A stretch of DNA of 64,000 nucleotides, from contig CAWFGW010000007.1 of NCBI GenBank assembly GCA_963815495.1, positions 129,531 to 193,530 of the forward strand, in the 5' to 3' direction. The notes below the pieces were generated by a model. The model saw nothing but the letters and a program-made list of their open reading frames with translations. It was not told where the DNA came from and searched no databases. This DNA is from an uncultured Cytophagales bacterium (GTDB lineage Bacteria; Bacteroidota; Bacteroidia; Cytophagales; JAAEPT01). The stretch's first letter is position 1. Each line of letters begins with the position of its first letter. The translations under genes were made by a program, and so were the position numbers. Shown here in pieces: positions 55,116-64,000 of the stretch.

Positions 55116-58100
55116 ATGAAAAAGATTTTAGGGCTGGATTTGGGGACAAACTCGATTGGGTGGGCGCTAGTTAACCAAGATTTTGGAAATAAACAAGGAG
55201 AAATAATTGGTTTAGGAAGCCGAATTATTCCCATGAGTCAAGATATTCTCGGAGAATTTGGAAAAGGTAATTCGGTATCTCAAACCGCGGAAAGAACTGG
55301 CTACAGAGGAGTTCGAAGATTAAGAGAAAGGCACTTACTTCGTAGAGAACGATTACACCGAGTATTAAACATTTTATACTTTTTGCCTAAGCATTATGCC
55401 GACCAAATAGATTTTGAAAAAAAATTAGGGAAGTATGTTGAAGGTTCAGAACCAAAATTGGTTTATGACAACGACTTCATCTTCAAAAAGTCTTTTGAGG
55501 AGATGTTAAATGACTTTAAACAAAATCAACCACAGTTACTAATCAATAAAAAAGGAGAACCAGCTTTAGTCCCTTACGATTGGACTATTTATTATTTGCG
55601 TAAAAAAGCACTAACTCAAAAAATAGATAAACAAGAATTAGCATGGATTATCCTGAATTTCAATCAGAAACGTGGTTATTATCAGTTAAGAGGTGAAGAA
55701 GAGGAAGAAAACCCAAATAAGCTTGTTGAGTTCTATTCCTTAAGAATCGTTGATGTTGTACCTGATGAAGAACCCAATAAGAAAGGAGAAACGTGGTATT
55801 CATTACTTTTAGAAAACGGCTGGACTTATAGACGCTCCAGTAAAACTTCTTTGGATGATTGGAAAGACAAAATGAGAGACTTTATTGTTACTACTGACTT
55901 GAATGATGATGGTACAATTAAAACAGATAAAGATGGAGTTGAAAAGCGTAGTTTCAGAGCACCAAAAGAAGACGATTGGGGATTAGTTAAGAAAAAAACA
56001 GAACAGGAAATAGAACAAACAAACAAGACAGTCGGACAATACATCTATGATGCTTTACTTCGTGACCCTAAACAGAAGATAAAAGGGAAACTGGTTCGAA
56101 CTATAGAACGCAGATTTTACAAAGAAGAGTTAAAAGCTATTTTAAAGAAACAAATTGAATTTCAACCTGAATTATTTTCAGATGACTTGTATAATGAATG
56201 TATAAGAGAATTATACAAAAACAACGAAGCACATCAACTTTCTTTGAGCAAAAAAGGCTTCATAAACTTATTTGTTAATGACATCATATTCTATCAACGT
56301 CCATTAAGAAGTCAAAAATCTTCCATCAGTAATTGCTCTTTAGAATTCCGAACATATAAAGTTGATGGCATTAATAAGCAAGAATATTTGAAAGCCATTC
56401 CAAAATCAAATCCTTATTATCAAGAATTTAGAGTGTGGCAATGGTTGTATAATCTGAAAATTTTTAAAAATGAAGATGATACAGATGTAACTGGTTTTTT
56501 TATCAAGAGTGTTGAAGACATAGAAAATATTTTTGAATTTTTAATGAGTCAAAAAGAAGTTGATCATAAAGATGTTTTAAAGTATTTCTTCAATGATTTA
56601 AAAGGCAAAGCTTTAAATGAGGCAATTTCTCTGTATCGTTGGAATTATGTATTCGACTCTGAAAAAGGAGAATCGAAAAAATACCCAATGAATGAAACTG
56701 GACATGAAATTAACCGAAGGTTGAGCAAGGTTAATGATGTTCCATTAGGTTTCTTAAAAATGTTGGACACAAAAGAGATAACAACTAAGAAAACGAAAGA
56801 AAGGAGAATTGTAACACTAGGAACAAGAGAAGAACAGCTTTGGCAAATAATGTATTCAGTTACTGATAAAAAGGAATATGAGCAAGCTTTGAACTCTTTT
56901 GCAGATAAATACAATTTGGATAAAGAATCATTTGTAGAGAATTTTAAAAAATTCCCTCCTTTCAAAAGTGATTATGGTACTTTTTCAGAAAAAGCAATTA
57001 AAAGACTATTGCCTTTATTGAGAATAGGGAAATACTGGAATTGGGATAAAATTGATAAGCATACAAAAAACCGAATAGAAAATATAATCAATGCTGTAGA
57101 TGATGAAATAAGATTAATTGTTCGTGAAAAAGCTGAAAAACACCAATTAACATTGGAGAATGATTTTCAAGGGTTACCTCTTTGGTTGGCTCAATATATT
57201 GTTTACGACCGTCATTCAGAAGCAAGTGTTGCAGGTAAATGGAATTCCGTTTCAGATTTAGAAAACTTCCTTGAAGAATTCAAACAACATTCTTTACGCA
57301 ATCCGATTGTTGAGCAAGTGGTAACAGAAACACTTCGTGTGGTGAAAGACATTTGGCAGCATTACGGTTGCGGAGCTAAAGATTTCTTTGACGAAATTCA
57401 TATTGAGTTGGGTAGAGAAATGAAAAACACCGCAGATGAACGCAAAAGGTTGACAAGCATTGTAACAGAAAATCAAAACACAAATCTTCGTATCAAAGCT
57501 CTTTTAATTGAGATGATGAATGATATTAACGTTGAAAACGTACGTCCTTTTTCTCCATCGCAACAAGAGATATTAAAGATTTACGAAGAAGGTGTTCTTA
57601 ATTCAAGTATTGAAATTGAGGAAGAGATACTAAAAATCAGCAAAAAATCCGAACCCACAAAATCCGAATTACAACGCTATAAGTTATGGATGGAACAAAA
57701 ATACAGGTCACCATACACAGGACAAATTATTCCTTTGAATAAGTTATTTACACCTGAATATGAGATAGAACATATTATTCCACAAAGTAGATTTTTTGAT
57801 GATAGCTTTAGCAATAAAGTGATATGTGAATCAGCAGTTAATAAGCTAAAAGACAATCAAATTGGATTAGAATTTATCAAAAATCATTATGGACAAAAAA
57901 TTTCTCTAGGATTCGGGAAAGAGGTTCAGATTTTTACCGAAGAACAATACAAAGAATTTGTCAAAGAGAACTATTCAAAAAATAGAAGCAAGCGAAACAA
58001 GCTTTTGTTAGAAGACATTCCCGAAAAGATGATTGAAAGACAGCTAAATGATACGAGATACATCAGTAAATTCATCTCTCATGTATTATCGAATATTGTT

Positions 58101-59543
58101 AGAGGTGAAAAAACCGATGAAGGAGTGACGTCTAAAAATATTATTCCAGGAAACGGAAAAATAACAACTGAACTTAAACATGATTGGGGATTGAATGATG
58201 TTTGGAATGATTTGATTTTACCTCGTTTTGAGCGAATGAATGAAATAACAAAATCAAATGATTTCACTACATATAACAAAAAACACCAAAAACATCTTCC
58301 TACAGTTCCTTTCGAGCTAAGCAAAGGATTCCAAAAGAAGCGTATAGACCACAGGCATCATGCTTTAGATGCTTTAGTAATAGCTTGTGCAACTAGAGAT
58401 CATATCAATTTATTGAACAATCAATCTGGTAAATCTGAAATGAAGCGATATGATTTACAGAATAAATTACGCAGAAAAGAACCCTACTTTAATCAAAAAG
58501 AAAACAGACAAAAAGAAGCTTTTAAAGAGTTCTACAAACCATGGAAAACTTTTACCGAAGATACTCGAGAAGTATTGGAAACGACTGTTGTAAGTTTTAA
58601 ACAAAACCTTCGAGTCATTAATAAAGCAACGAATAAGCACGAAAAGTGGATAGAGAAAAACGGAGAAAAGAAAAAAGGATTAGTGGAGCAAATAGGCGTG
58701 AATTGGGCGATTAGAAAACCAATGCACAGAGAAACAGTTTCTGGAAAAATAGACTTACCTAGAATCAAAGTTGCTAAAGGGAAAATTTTAACGGCAACAA
58801 GAAAGAGTATTGACACTTCTTTTAATTTAAAAGTAATAGAATCTATTACAGACACAGGTATTCAAAAAATCCTTCAAAATTATTTATCAAGTAAGAATGG
58901 TGATTCTGAACTGGCTTTTTCTCCGGAAGGAATTGAAGATATGAATAAGAATATTGAAAAGTTTAATGAGGGAAAATTTCATCAGCCAATATATAAAGCA
59001 AGAATTTTTGAAGTCGGAAGTAAATTTTCATTAGGTCATTCTGGAAATAAAAAAGATAAATATGTAGAAGCAGCAAAAGGAACTAATCTATTCTTTGCGG
59101 TTTATCAAGATGAAATTGGAAAGAGAAGTTATGCAACCGTTCCATTAAACGAAGTTATTGAAAGACAAAAGCAAGGTCTGTTTTCAGTTCCCGAGACCAA
59201 TGAAAAAGGTGACAAACTTTTGTTTTCTCTTTCTCCAAATGATTTAGTTTATGTTCCTATGGAAAATGAAGATGTGAAAAGTATAAATTTTAATGATTTG
59301 ACAAAAGAACAAACTGATAGAATCTATAAAATGGAAAAAGCATCAGGCAGCGAATGTTATTTTATTCGATGTAATATTGCCACCTTGATTAAACAATATG
59401 ATGCTAAATCAAAATTAGGAGAACTTTCTAGTCAAAACAAATTAGAAACTACAATGGAAATCAACTCAACCGATAGAATCAAAGAACAATGTTGGAAATT
59501 AGAGACTACAAGATTAGGAGAGATTAAAAATGTAATTAAATAG
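55116..59543 (+). CDS. cas9: type II-C Cas9 (1475 aa)
   Basis: RuvC-I GLDLGTNSIGWA (Asp8, 55137-55139). Arg-rich bridge helix RTGYRGVRRLRERHLLRRERL. HNH YEIEHIIPQS...N (His886, 57771-57773). RuvC-III DHRHHALDALV. Confidence 0.95.
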   Translation: MKKILGLDLGTNSIGWALVNQDFGNKQGEIIGLGSRIIPMSQDILGEFGKGNSVSQTAERTGYRGVRRLRERHLLRRERLHRVLNILYFLPKHYADQIDFEKKLGKYVEGSEPKLVYDNDFIFKKSFEEMLNDFKQNQPQLLINKKGEPALVPYDWTIYYLRKKALTQKIDKQELAWIILNFNQKRGYYQLRGEEEEENPNKLVEFYSLRIVDVVPDEEPNKKGETWYSLLLENGWTYRRSSKTSLDDWKDKMRDFIVTTDLNDDGTIKTDKDGVEKRSFRAPKEDDWGLVKKKTEQEIEQTNKTVGQYIYDALLRDPKQKIKGKLVRTIERRFYKEELKAILKKQIEFQPELFSDDLYNECIRELYKNNEAHQLSLSKKGFINLFVNDIIFYQRPLRSQKSSISNCSLEFRTYKVDGINKQEYLKAIPKSNPYYQEFRVWQWLYNLKIFKNEDDTDVTGFFIKSVEDIENIFEFLMSQKEVDHKDVLKYFFNDLKGKALNEAISLYRWNYVFDSEKGESKKYPMNETGHEINRRLSKVNDVPLGFLKMLDTKEITTKKTKERRIVTLGTREEQLWQIMYSVTDKKEYEQALNSFADKYNLDKESFVENFKKFPPFKSDYGTFSEKAIKRLLPLLRIGKYWNWDKIDKHTKNRIENIINAVDDEIRLIVREKAEKHQLTLENDFQGLPLWLAQYIVYDRHSEASVAGKWNSVSDLENFLEEFKQHSLRNPIVEQVVTETLRVVKDIWQHYGCGAKDFFDEIHIELGREMKNTADERKRLTSIVTENQNTNLRIKALLIEMMNDINVENVRPFSPSQQEILKIYEEGVLNSSIEIEEEILKISKKSEPTKSELQRYKLWMEQKYRSPYTGQIIPLNKLFTPEYEIEHIIPQSRFFDDSFSNKVICESAVNKLKDNQIGLEFIKNHYGQKISLGFGKEVQIFTEEQYKEFVKENYSKNRSKRNKLLLEDIPEKMIERQLNDTRYISKFISHVLSNIVRGEKTDEGVTSKNIIPGNGKITTELKHDWGLNDVWNDLILPRFERMNEITKSNDFTTYNKKHQKHLPTVPFELSKGFQKKRIDHRHHALDALVIACATRDHINLLNNQSGKSEMKRYDLQNKLRRKEPYFNQKENRQKEAFKEFYKPWKTFTEDTREVLETTVVSFKQNLRVINKATNKHEKWIEKNGEKKKGLVEQIGVNWAIRKPMHRETVSGKIDLPRIKVAKGKILTATRKSIDTSFNLKVIESITDTGIQKILQNYLSSKNGDSELAFSPEGIEDMNKNIEKFNEGKFHQPIYKARIFEVGSKFSLGHSGNKKDKYVEAAKGTNLFFAVYQDEIGKRSYATVPLNEVIERQKQGLFSVPETNEKGDKLLFSLSPNDLVYVPMENEDVKSINFNDLTKEQTDRIYKMEKASGSECYFIRCNIATLIKQYDAKSKLGELSSQNKLETTMEINSTDRIKEQCWKLETTRLGEIKNVIK

Positions 59544-59606
59544 GTGTAATCAAAACCAATATTTCCGAAAACTAAATATTCACAAAGATTAAATAACAAA
59601 TAACCT

Positions 59607-59822
59607 ATGCAATCAGAAACTAATTATCACCTCTATAACAACGACAACTCGGTAAACTACTACCGAAGCACAGGACGCTATTTTTTGCATCAATGGTGTA
59701 AGTATATAACACCTGTGGTAGGCATGTGTGGATATTATTTAATGCCCATCCCTCTTATTTTTTTAATTAGAACACCTAAAGAAGAAAAAGTATTCGCATA
59801 TGTTCAAATGAAGAACCCCTAA
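59607..59822 (+). pseudogene. degenerate N-terminal fragment of a RAYT/IS200-like HUH transposase
   Basis: It aligns by eye with the intact RAYT at 63080-63682: YHLYNNDN/FHIYNHAN, RYFLHQ/RYFLRK, YITPV/YIYPL, YYLMPIPLIFLIRTPKE/YCLLPNHFHLMVRIRSE, VFAYV/LFEYL. HUH is lost (PLI instead of HFH). It ends at the same palindrome that lies inside the intact gene. Confidence 0.6.
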
Positions 59823-59825
59823 CCT

Positions 59826-59858
59826 AATCCTCGAGGATTTTAAAACACTCGGAGGATT
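59826..59858. repeat. REP-like palindrome A (imperfect)
   Basis: AATCCTCGAGGATTTTAAAACACTCGGAGGATT. It lies 17 nt upstream of the cas1 ATG. Confidence 0.8.
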
Positions 59859-59875
59859 GTCAACTAGTTAAAGCT

Positions 59876-60769
59876 ATGATAAAACGAACGCTACTCTTTG
59901 GAAACCCTGCTTACCTCAGCACAAAAAACGAACAATTAGTTGTTAAGTATCCTGATGAAGCGCTTGATACTAAAACAGTAGCCATTGAAGACATTGGCGT
60001 ATTGTTATTAGAAGATCCTCAAATTACTATCACCACGGGGTTGATTGACAAACTCACCGCCAACCAAACAGCCATTATCACCTGCGACCGTAACCACATG
60101 CCAACAGGCTTGTTGATGCCGCTTAGCGGACATAGTGAACAACAAGAACGGTTTAGGGCACAACTAAGCGCCAGCGAACCGTTGAGAAAAAACCTATGGC
60201 AACAGACGGTACAGTCAAAAATTAAAAACCAAGCGTTACACCTCAAAGAACGAGGCACGGCTATCGACAATATGCTGCATTGGGTAAAAAGCGTGACCTC
60301 AGGCGATACCCAAAACCATGAAGCACGGGCGGCTGCTTATTACTGGCAACAGTTGTTTGATTTACCGCACTTCAACCGACATGCAGGAGGCGAAGCGCCC
60401 AACAACTTACTGAACTATGGTTACGCTATCTTAAGAGCTGTTTGCTCGCGAGCATTAGTGAGCAGTGGTTTACTTCCCCTACTCGGCATTCATCACAAAA
60501 ATAAATACAACGCCTACTGCCTGGCCGATGACATCATGGAACCTTACCGACCTTATGTTGACCTGGTGGTGTGCCACATCGTGGACAACTTGGGCGATTA
60601 CGAAACATTAACGACTGACTTAAAAAAAGAACTGTTACAAATACCGGTGTTGGATGTGATGATTGACGGCAAAAAAAGTCCGTTGATGGTGGCGATGAGT
60701 CGCACCACCAGTTCGCTGTACGATTGTTTTGCTGGCAATAGTCGGAAAATCAGCTATCCAGAGTTTTAG
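59876..60769 (+). CDS. cas1: Cas1 integrase (type II)
   Basis: 297 aa with NLLNYGYAILR...GIHH...ADDIMEPYRP motifs. Confidence 0.95.
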   Translation: MIKRTLLFGNPAYLSTKNEQLVVKYPDEALDTKTVAIEDIGVLLLEDPQITITTGLIDKLTANQTAIITCDRNHMPTGLLMPLSGHSEQQERFRAQLSASEPLRKNLWQQTVQSKIKNQALHLKERGTAIDNMLHWVKSVTSGDTQNHEARAAAYYWQQLFDLPHFNRHAGGEAPNNLLNYGYAILRAVCSRALVSSGLLPLLGIHHKNKYNAYCLADDIMEPYRPYVDLVVCHIVDNLGDYETLTTDLKKELLQIPVLDVMIDGKKSPLMVAMSRTTSSLYDCFAGNSRKISYPEF

Positions 60770-60774
60770 ACTAC

Positions 60775-60807
60775 AATCCTCGGAGGTTTTGAAAACCTCC
60801 GAGGATT
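60775..60807. repeat. REP-like palindrome B (perfect 16-bp arms)
   Basis: AATCCTCGGAGGTTTT-G-AAAACCTCCGAGGATT, located between the cas1 stop and the cas2 start. Confidence 0.9.
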
Positions 60808-60827
60808 AAAACGATTACAAACACTAA

Positions 60828-61184
<357 letters not shown>

Positions 61185-61255
61185 AAAAGCGGTTTGTTTT
61201 TTAATTCCAATTAATAAAGTAATTCACAGAATACCAACCAATTAGCTTGGGGTAT

Positions 61256-63048
61256 CCTGTGAATTATCACTTAAGATAAGTGTTTGAAAGCAATTCACAA
61301 CCATGGTTAGTGAGAAGGTTCAATTCCTTCTCCTGTGAATTATCACTTAAGATAAGTGTTTGAAAGCAATTCACAACGAACTGACATAAAACGCAAACGT
61401 AAATTATCCTGTGAATTATCACTTAAGATAAGTGTTTGAAAGCAATTCACAACTATTAGTTCCGCATCCTGTTTTGATACCTCCCTGTGAATTATCACTT
61501 AAGATAAGTGTTTGAAAGCAATTCACAACTGATTGCCACATCTTCAACTAGCCCATAGGCCTGTGAATTATCACTTAAGATAAGTGTTTGAAAGCAATTC
61601 ACAACTTGTAAGTTGGTGTTCTTTCGTTTTCTAAACCTGTGAATTATCACTTAAGATAAGTGTTTGAAAGCAATTCACAACATCAGACAAGAGATACCTT
61701 TTTTTATTCTACCTGTGAATTATCACTTAAGATAAGTGTTTGAAAGCAATTCACAACCTTCAAGCCTTTCAATTCTTCTTGATTCCCCCTGTGAATTATC
61801 ACTTAAGATAAGTGTTTGAAAGCAATTCACAACGGAAAAGGTAAATGGTTAAAATTATACAGACCTGTGAATTATCACTTAAGATAAGTGTTTGAAAGCA
61901 ATTCACAACGGCTCACCAAGAGCTTCACCAGCCCATTCGCCTGTGAATTATCACTTAAGATAAGTGTTTGAAAGCAATTCACAACACCTTTAGTTGCACC
62001 CACGTAGTACAAGCCCCTGTGAATTATCACTTAAGATAAGTGTTTGAAAGCAATTCACAACAGTAAAATAGGTGTGCAGATAATCGCTATTCCTGTGAAT
62101 TATCACTTAAGATAAGTGTTTGAAAGCAATTCACAACAGATTTTGCCTTTTCTATTTCTAAAAGCAACCTGTGAATTATCACTTAAGATAAGTTTTTGAA
62201 AGCAATTCACAACTACCTCATAAGCTGGTAAATAAAGCCCTTTCCTGTGAATTATCACTTAAGATAAGTGTTTGAAAGCAATTCACAACGGGTTTTAGAT
62301 AGTTCAAACAATCGTATATCCTGTGAATTATCACTTAAGATAAGTGTTTGAAAGCAATTCACAACTTCAATGGAGTAAAGGGAACATCTCAGGGGCCTGT
62401 GAATTATCACTTAAGATAAGTGTTTGAAAGCAATTCACAACGAGCCTCTTCCAATTCAGAAGATTTGATTTCCTGTGAATTATCACTTAAGATAAGTGTT
62501 TGAAAGCAATTCACAACCTAGTTCGTGAGGTAGTTTAAAACTATTCTCCTGTGAATTATCACTTAAGATAAGTGTTTGAAAGCAATTCACAACTAAGGAG
62601 TTAGGGTTTCATTATGCTTGTTTCCTGTGAATTATCACTTAAGATAAGTGTTTGAAAGCAATTCACAACTACTTCATCTACAAACTTCAACTCCTTAGCC
62701 CTGTGAATTATCACTTAAGATAAGTGTTTGAAAGCAATTCACAACTGGAACAGCAACCGTAACTATTGATGGAAGCCTGTGAATTATCACTTAAGATAAG
62801 TGTTTGAAAGCAATTCACAACGATAGATATCACATTGATAGGGGTAATTTACCTGTGAATTATCACTTAAGATAAGTGTTTGAAAGCAATTCACAACCCG
62901 TGATAATACCATCAATCCTTGAACGGCCTGTGAATTATCACTTAAGATAAGTGTTTGAAAGCAATTCACAACTAGGAGAAGAAACAAAACGATTGTTATT
63001 CTCCTGTGAATTATCACTTAAGATAAGTGTTTGAAAGCAATTCACAAC
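61256..63048 (-). CRISPR. CRISPR array: 24 repeats of 46 bp and 23 spacers (22 x 30 bp, one 29 bp), transcribed on the minus strand
   Basis: + strand repeat CCTGTGAATTATCACTTAAGATAAGTGTTTGAAAGCAATTCACAAC. The crRNA-sense repeat is GTTGTGAATTGCTTTCAAACACTTATCTTAAGTGATAATTCACAGG. Period 76 bp. Orientation is fixed by complementarity to the terminator-bearing tracrRNA. Confidence 0.97.
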
Positions 63049-63071
63049 TTTTAACCCTCGGAGGGTTAAAA
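63049..63071. repeat. REP-like palindrome C
   Basis: TTTTAACCCTC-G-GAGGGTTAAAA. It starts at the base immediately after the last CRISPR repeat. Confidence 0.85.
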
Positions 63072-63079
63072 ATTAAGGT

Positions 63080-63682
63080 TTAAAACTCAAATAAACCCTC
63101 ATTAATTGTGATATTGTTATGAAAGTCCAACAATGCTTGTTTGTTACCAAACCACTCCTGGAGGTACATTCGATTGATCTTCGTGGGTTTTTCGAGGCAA
63201 TAAGCATGGATAGAAGAATGTTTCCAGTCGAGTAAGTTGCAACAAAACCCGTGTTTTACTGGGTTTAAGTGTATGTAAGCTATAAGTCTGGTAAAGTAAG
63301 TCTCATCCTGTACCGGTTTGCGTTTAAACCGATGCATAAAAAGACTGCCTTTTCTATCATACATCTCATTATAGGCTTTTGAGTAAGCATTAAAAAAGTT
63401 ACTAAATTGTTTTGATACTAGACCTCCGAGGTTTTCAAAACCTCGGAGGTCTTTACCTTTTAAATATTCAAACAACACGTCCTCACTCCTTATCCTCACC
63501 ATTAGATGAAAATGATTAGGCAACAAACAATACGCATAAGTATCGGCTAGAGGATAGATGTAGTCAGCATATTTACGAAGAAAATAACGATAGTTTTCAT
63601 CGTTTCTAAATAGATTTTCGCTACCATTGGCATGATTGTAAATGTGGAAAACAGTGTCTGGTAAAAGTGGTTCTAAATACAT
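63080..63682 (-). CDS. REP-associated tyrosine transposase (RAYT) / IS200-like Y1 HUH transposase
   Basis: HUH motif PNHFHLMV and catalytic-Tyr motif AYIHLNPVKHG, in a 200-aa protein. Confidence 0.8.
   Translation of the reverse strand: MYLEPLLPDTVFHIYNHANGSENLFRNDENYRYFLRKYADYIYPLADTYAYCLLPNHFHLMVRIRSEDVLFEYLKGKDLRGFENLGGLVSKQFSNFFNAYSKAYNEMYDRKGSLFMHRFKRKPVQDETYFTRLIAYIHLNPVKHGFCCNLLDWKHSSIHAYCLEKPTKINRMYLQEWFGNKQALLDFHNNITINEGLFEF
63420..63452. repeat. REP-like palindrome D, in frame inside the RAYT ORF
   Basis: AGACCTCCGAGGTTTT-C-AAAACCTCGGAGGTCT, which encodes KDLRGFENLGGL. Confidence 0.9.
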
Positions 63683-63697
63683 AGCTGGTTTATTTTA

Positions 63698-63714
63698 TTA
63701 ACCCTCAGAGGGTG
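63698..63714. repeat. REP-like palindrome E
   Basis: TTAACCCTC-A-GAGGGTG. It lies 16 bp upstream of the RAYT ATG. Confidence 0.7.
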
Positions 63715-63746
63715 TGAATAGAAAACTAAAAATCTTATTATTATTC

Positions 63747-64000
63747 TCAAATGCTAAGTGGTCTTTTACTGGTCAAAAAGGTTTTAAATGCTTCGCTTTT
63801 TAATACGGTTATTTGATCGATGAGCCCTAACACAAACCGCCCCACTCCTGCAAACTGACTTACCTTGCAACGTAATACATACATTTTTTTATCTTCATCA
63901 ACCAACGACAGGTAATTGATGGCCAACGGAAACTCTTTTATCAACAAAAGATACGCTTGAAAAGAGAGTTCTAATTCAATCGGTAAATCAGGTGTTCCAG
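63747..64000 (-). CDS. C-terminal end of a WYL/YafY-like transcriptional regulator (5' part outside window)
   Basis: The frame is open to the window edge (...GTPDLPIELELSFQAYLLLIKEFPLAINYLS...FAGVGRFVLGLIDQITVLKSEAFKTFL). It resembles the WCX C-terminal extension of WYL regulators. The assignment is tentative. Confidence 0.35.
   Translation of the reverse strand, partial: GTPDLPIELELSFQAYLLLIKEFPLAINYLSLVDEDKKMYVLRCKVSQFAGVGRFVLGLIDQITVLKSEAFKTFLTSKRPLSI

Follow-up and report, generated by a model that had tools for sequence, protein, structure and literature searches.

A 33-bp palindrome inside a RAYT gene of a Cytophagales bacterium as a probable intragenic member of the gene's own REP-like family

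A palindrome that is read in frame through the middle of an intact transposase gene raises the question of whether it is a passenger, a regulatory site or a coincidence of codon usage. Such a palindrome was found in the window, the stretch of 64,000 nucleotides that was analyzed here. The gene that contains it is a RAYT gene at the end of a type II-C CRISPR-Cas locus, where it sits after the array and on the opposite strand. The features of the locus are the following:

55116-59543: cas9
59607-59822, plus strand: dead RAYT paralogue, front half only, with stop codons inside, between cas9 and cas1
59826-59858: degenerate copy of the palindrome, with which the dead RAYT paralogue ends
59876-60769: cas1
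60775-60807: second perfect 33-bp palindrome, extragenic, in the gap between cas1 and cas2, with the outer bases AATCC...GGATT
60831-61184: cas2
up to 63048: CRISPR array of 24 repeats
63046-63074: short palindrome with the core AACCCTC-G-GAGGGTT, which adjoins the last CRISPR repeat and lies just 3' of the RAYT stop codon
63080-63682, minus strand: intact RAYT/TnpAREP-like Y1 HUH gene of 200 aa (assigned by ORF, profile, AlphaFold2 model and fold match)
63420-63452, in the minus-strand RAYT ORF: internal palindrome with 16-bp arms and a 1-nt centre, made of two inverted 15-nt REP-like hairpin units
63700-63714: short imperfect palindrome AACCCTC-A-GAGGGTG, 18 bp 5' of the RAYT start codon

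To characterize the product of the RAYT gene, it was aligned with 44 homologues of 50-78% identity from Cytophagales, Balneolales and other Bacteroidota. Its HUH motif is NHFH (residues 56-59) and its Tyr motif Y136-IHLNP, and within these H57, H59, Y136 and N140 are invariant in the alignment. NCBIfam NF047646 (REP_Tyr_transpos) scored 59 bits, under the curated cut-off of 80, and a Pfam match was not obtained, for PF01797 or otherwise. A profile of the 44 homologues matched the PDB entry 4ER8 (E. coli TnpAREP) with an E-value of 6.3e-8, and the Tyr segment aligned to YIYINP of that entry. An AlphaFold2 model of the protein (mean pLDDT 93) had 4er8_A as its best Foldseek match (E 9.7e-9, TM 0.60/0.72). 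At the GTAG-binding positions of E. coli TnpAREP (W94, Q95, W99, E100, H101 and R104), the sequence here is L-F...F-K-R-K, the WQ position being LF, and the Tyr motif is YIHLNP in the window and YIHNNP in most homologues. The RAYT of the window is a divergent relative. A second intact gene of the family was not found in the genome.

In the AlphaFold2 model, the HUH strand (residues 57-64), on which the HUH motif lies, is followed by a short helix (67-74), a loop (75-84) and a long helix (85-107). The palindrome codes for residues 78-88, which in the model form part of the loop and the first turn of the long helix. Among the homologues, the length of this loop ranges from about 13 to 52 residues. 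The original prediction had placed the palindrome in frame between the HUH strand and the next helix, within an ORF that stays open and retains its catalytic motifs, and these points were borne out.

The palindrome reads AGACCTCCGAGGTTTT-C-AAAACCTCGGAGGTCT, with its arms at 63420-63435 and 63437-63452. It had been announced as a perfect 33-bp palindrome, which holds for the two 16-bp arms, as they are 100% complementary, but not for the central base, which is unpaired. By chance no such palindrome is expected in the window (0/100 shuffles). On the minus strand, the frame through it is K-DLRGFENLGG-L. The hairpin folds with -28.1 kcal/mol as RNA (z = -7.0) and with -17.4 kcal/mol as ssDNA (z = -6.7). 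Each single arm is also a small hairpin of its own, in which a 6-bp stem encloses a 3-nt loop (AAACCT-CCA-AGGTTT is one case), and these within-arm hairpins covary among homologues (77% paired vs 65% in shuffles, a value that 0/500 shuffles reach). The 33-nt element is an inverted dimer of a REP-like 15-nt hairpin unit, that is, two units in inverted order separated by a gap of 1-3 nt. Its length corresponds to 11 codons, and one stop-free frame of it gives a Gly-rich peptide. A GTAG was not present at the foot of the internal hairpin.

Two other identities of the hairpin were considered. An Rfam scan of 59500-64000 for known RNA families returned the CRISPR repeats and three chance-level matches only, which rules out a known RNA family. 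An intrinsic terminator of the RAYT transcript is unlikely, as no T-run follows the hairpin on the coding strand. On the plus strand, the palindrome followed by TTACCTTTTA (63420-63462) scores as terminator-like; it is antisense to RAYT and faces the cas operon and the array.

Subsequently, the DNA of 80 homologue loci was analyzed, 73 of which had an intact core; homologues number roughly 3,300. A palindrome of about 13-22 bp per arm was present at the same place in 41 of the 80 loci. Among the loci with an intact core, 38/73 carried a perfect inverted repeat of 12-22 bp at this place, mostly with arms of 15-17 bp and a loop of 1-3 nt, while the remaining ones were at background (stems of at most 11 bp). 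Four more internal copies were detected in loci where the core finder failed. All 15 positions per arm were paired in 31 of the 40 internal copies that were scored. The arm sequence is specific for the lineage (AGACCTCCGAGGTTTT, AAACCTCCAAGGTTTT, AGACCTGACAGGTTTT, AACTTTCCGAAAGTTT, AACCCTCCAAGGGTT, AGATCCGCAATGTCT and others), and both arms change together. Of the homologues whose HUH and Tyr motifs are intact, about half lack the internal copy or contain decayed remnants of it. A tree of the 73 homologues, calculated from 75 columns after the loop columns had been removed, had 5 starred branches and was too poorly resolved to tell gains from losses; on this weakly resolved tree the presence of the internal copy is patchy and needs about 20 changes.

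The original prediction proposed an alignment with RAYT homologues that lack the insert of about 11 aa. The segment did not prove to be an insert of this kind: the peptide L-x1-G-F-x-N-L-x2-G-L was present almost throughout the 44 homologues and also in 91 of the 120 best protein homologues. A peptide that is so widespread might, together with codon usage, give rise to a palindrome as a by-product without any constraint on the nucleic acid. However, synonymous recoding reached the observed stem length in only 1 of 11,400 trials, and the downstream control region gave 9 bp at most. The residues x1 and x2 form pairs such as T..S, Q..G, Q..E, R..G, P..E, A..P and similar ones, and the first bases of their codons are complementary in 73/73 cases, which is predicted by a DNA palindrome and not by protein chemistry. 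The same DNA element is moreover found between genes and in other frames. Codon coincidence was thus rejected by the recoding test and the flanking copies, and we consider it extremely improbable that the peptide accounts for the palindrome. In line with the original prediction, which had set coincidental codon usage against its own proposal, the equivalent segments of the homologues are themselves palindromic.

Covariation between the arms was analyzed in an alignment derived from the proteins, which included the non-palindromic rows. Of its cells, 80% were paired vs 61% in shuffles, and 136 were changed on both sides vs 50 in shuffles; neither value was reached by any of 500 shuffles, and slid controls gave far lower scores. 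Double-sided changes were detected in 15/16 pairs. At least three frames are used: most loci read LxGFxNLxGL, L046 and L076 read LSESxKLSES, and L072 and L053 differ. Duplicated or expanded units were seen in L027, L057, L030 and L044. Because recoding fails, the arms covary and several frames are used, the constraint acts on the nucleic acid, with the peptide as its shadow. In gene pairs with third synonymous positions saturated at 36-57% identity, the palindrome block is 80-100% identical.

The same element was also found outside the gene. It lies within 450 bp of the RAYT gene in 60/72 loci and on both sides in 32, typically some tens of bases 5' of the start codon or 3' of the stop codon. 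Internal copies showed 81% identity to their own flanks vs 60% to those of other loci (Wilcoxon p = 3e-5), and 15/31 were at least 90% identical to their own flanks. In L053 the internal copy and the flanks both come from a quite different family (AGATCCGCAATGTCT), and the internal site thus goes along with the REP family of its gene, whichever this is. Perfect arms were present in 31/40 internal and 64/94 flanking copies, and as far as the sequences tell, the dynamics of the two look alike. At least six loci had a perfect internal copy but no flanking copy within 2.5 kb. In three genomes a pattern search did not find other copies, which is weak evidence of absence as these genomes are MAGs.

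Genome-wide, 0-164 copies were counted per genome, with counts including 5, 14, 164, 21, 4, 23, 57, 13, 14, 35 and 4, and the reversed control pattern gave 0 copies. Of one degenerate pattern, applied to five genomes, only the result for L026 was used. In Rapidithrix, 0/27 sampled extragenic copies lay inside an ORF. The 164 copies belong to an Ekhidna genome (L016:2168-5055, G003), in which arrays with a period of about 60 bp surround the RAYT gene and copies recur every 208-217 bp at several contig ends. In two loci an in-frame copy was seen in a neighbouring gene less than 2.5 kb from the RAYT gene, in both cases in the RAYT frame: a Cas1 gene (L074:3192-4199) contains a 33-nt palindrome read as PLTGFQTLSGV, and a gene for an HsdM-like methyltransferase (L027:2-826) a copy read as NLQGFENLEGL. 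At L064:696-728 (G014) the internal arms have the order TGG..CCA, and the 12 extragenic copies all have the mirror order, CCA..TGG; evidently, dimers of both orders can arise.

In the genome of the window, the flanking sites of the RAYT gene hold short palindromes only. The palindrome at 63046-63074 occupies the site of the 3' flanking 33-nt element of the homologues, and that at 63700-63714 is at the 5' flanking site. Both are probably centre-deleted forms, and the one at 63046-63074 appears to be of the AACCCT...AGGGTT type seen beside L001. The sole further copy in the 4.09-Mb assembly is located at C29:259298, outside any ORF. With 4 copies of the element in this genome, a high-copy REP was ruled out. 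Another, GC-rich repeat with the core CCCCTCCTCGGAGGGG and the flanks GGGGTGGGT was noticed at C5:19443, 19940 and 20382, at C12:55869, 56310 and 56807, and at C7:376815. Contig C27 (11.7 kb) has a G+C content of 67.5%, and C16 and C17 have 42-45%, compared to a genome mean of 36%; these contigs may be foreign or mis-binned.

The dead paralogue (59607-59858 including its palindrome) aligns to residues 5-90 of the intact RAYT with 32% identity. It ends right after its own degenerate palindrome, which corresponds in frame and position to that of the intact gene, and this confirms the original observation that the truncated paralogue at 59.6 kb breaks at the same position. The stop codon of these RAYT genes is normally followed closely by another copy, and a deletion that joins this 3' flanking copy to the internal one would leave exactly this remnant, which presumably arose in this way.

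RAYT genes of this clade were found inside CRISPR-Cas loci of three types. In L074 the RAYT gene adjoins cas1. In L101/L102 (2001-2636) it lies between cas12a and cas4-cas1-cas2, and in L103/L104 (2001-2618) after DevR/cas7-like genes and before cas4.

These findings can be compared with known systems. The REPtron, an E. coli TnpAREP/RAYT gene with flanking REPs, is said to have been described by Nunvar in 2010 and by Ton-Hoang and Messing in 2012. E. coli REPs are imperfect, tagged with GTAG and present in hundreds of copies, and to our knowledge the E. coli TnpAREP gene contains no internal REP. The system described here shares with it the fold, the HUH and Tyr motifs, one intact gene per genome and cognate flanking hairpins, whereas the segment from the HUH strand to alphaC is about 25 residues shorter in E. 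coli TnpAREP. To judge from sequence, a RAYT gene with its REP family is REPtron anatomy, to which a third, internal copy is added. Rickettsia RPEs are in-frame palindromic elements in protein genes. Intragenic GTAG/CGTC REPs have been described in many other genes (Di Nocera et al., 2013; PMC3733652). As in both of these, a short palindrome is translated here as an extra peptide in a tolerant part of a protein; in contrast to them, as they occur in many unrelated genes, the present element is rare inside genes (0/27) and frequent in its own RAYT gene and the immediate neighbours. The elements further resemble REPINs (Bertels and Rainey, 2011; PMC3116915) in that two inverted REP units form one larger hairpin, the arms co-change and the elements are tied to a single-copy RAYT gene. 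REPINs have a spacer of tens of bases between the two REPs (PMC3116915), whereas here the gap is 1-3 nt, the element is 33 nt long and the copy number is often low (4 in this genome).

The closest precedent is found in the tnpAREP genes of subclass 2.4, for which in-frame REP insertions in the beta3/alphaC loop were reported and the loop was modelled and judged peripheral (Quentin et al., 2018, BMC Genomics 19:475; PMC6006769). TnpAY1 subclass 2.4 corresponds to RAYT group 4, its REPs carry a GTAG foot or the double foot GT[AG]G...C[TC]AC, and its proteins have a WQ motif, the Y motif YIxNNP and the HuH motif NH[IFV]H (PMC6006769). As in subclass 2.4, an extra REP copy is present inside the RAYT gene beside the flanking REPs and keeps the frame, its site is the variable beta3/alphaC loop, which lies between the HuH motif and the Tyr motif, the HuH motif is of the NH[IFV]H type, the proteins have about 194-200 aa and Bacteroidetes are among the members. 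Unlike in subclass 2.4, the elements do not contain GTAG, and the proteins have neither the WQ motif nor any of the GTAG-binding residues. None of the arm sequences was shared with the REPs in the accessible part of the REP table of Quentin et al. (2018; PMC6006769). The kind of feature was thus already published in 2018, and the present case is a new example in a GTAG-less Bacteroidota clade.

We consider it probable that the palindrome is an intragenic member of the REP-like family of this RAYT gene, a passenger renewed in the same way as the flanking copies. In the clade the norm is an element before the start codon and one after the stop codon, to which in about half of the genes a third copy is added in the DNA for the predicted surface loop that connects the HUH strand to helix alphaC. 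The local copying or conversion that maintains the flanking copies would also make and renew the internal one, probably by RAYT acting on ssDNA hairpins near its own gene. The internal copy would be tolerated because the loop is peripheral and would be neutral, its known side effect being recombination with a flanking copy. This reading is based on the internal site tracking the REP family of its gene, on the expansion of units, the several frames and the patchy presence, as well as on a perfection like that of the flanks and on the in-frame copies in HsdM-like and cas1 genes near RAYT genes. The original suggestion that the element inserted into its own mobilizer at a permissive loop fits this evidence and that of PMC6006769; as a private event of this genome it did not hold, since all closest relatives have the palindrome and the signature extends to the 91 homologues mentioned above. 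The 80-100% identity of the block over saturated synonymous sites could reflect direct selection instead of renewal, and proximity alone may not explain the enrichment, as about half of the RAYT genes have a copy and intragenic copies are otherwise rare.

A possible but rather doubtful alternative is that the internal hairpin is a selected cis-acting site, which is recognized by RAYT or a host factor on its own ssDNA or mRNA; this estimate jointly covers the variants in which the site limits RAYT expression (by autoregulation, RNase cleavage or ribosome slowing) or serves as a programmed breakpoint at which the gene inactivates itself together with a flanking copy. A nucleotide conservation that by far exceeds the one at synonymous sites, perfect pairing in 31/40 internal copies, the stable RNA hairpin of -28 kcal/mol, the strong enrichment in the RAYT gene compared to other genes, the persistence of perfect internal copies where flanking or other copies were not found and the end of the dead paralogue at the hairpin all agree with such a site. 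Yet the internal copy is missing or decayed in about half of the homologues in which HUH and Tyr motifs are both intact, its distribution on the tree is patchy (about 20 changes), and copies in the same frame in unrelated neighbouring genes indicate that a role specific to RAYT is not needed for survival. Internal copies are also not clearly more perfect than flanking ones. The domesticated cis-regulatory or self-recognition hairpin of the original prediction would be such a site. It seems unlikely to us that each RAYT lineage keeps its own target inside the coding sequence as a selected self-recognition site, be it an operator or a self-inactivation breakpoint. If this were true, the site would be held to the changing specificity of the enzyme, which would explain its conservation above synonymous sites and its survival as the only copy in some genomes. 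We regard as improbable that a single ancient insertion in the ancestor of the clade was kept as a hairpin by point and compensatory mutations, without re-insertion or conversion. The same position and mostly same frame across the clade, the changes on both sides in 15/16 pairs and the complementary first bases of x1 and x2 in 73/73 proteins would be expected from it, but the use of at least three frames (LSESxKLSES in L046/L076, as well as L072 and L053), the duplicated or expanded units in L027, L057, L030 and L044, the match of internal copies to their own flanks even where the REP family differs (L053) and the scarcity of intermediates with a single mismatch argue against it.

Few domesticated mobile systems of bacteria are as common, and as poorly understood, as RAYTs and their REP repeats, and a target site inside the gene of the enzyme itself is a natural experiment on the co-evolution of enzyme and target. 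The published account is that of a tolerated insertion. For a GTAG-less Bacteroidota clade four points are added here: the internal copy tracks its own flanks, it is conserved far beyond synonymous sites, it consists of two inverted 15-nt hairpins, and it is specific to the RAYT gene and the genes close by. For annotation, the peptide LxGFxNLxGL marks a translated repeat and not a protein motif. Whether the internal copy is a passenger or a regulator is now directly testable.
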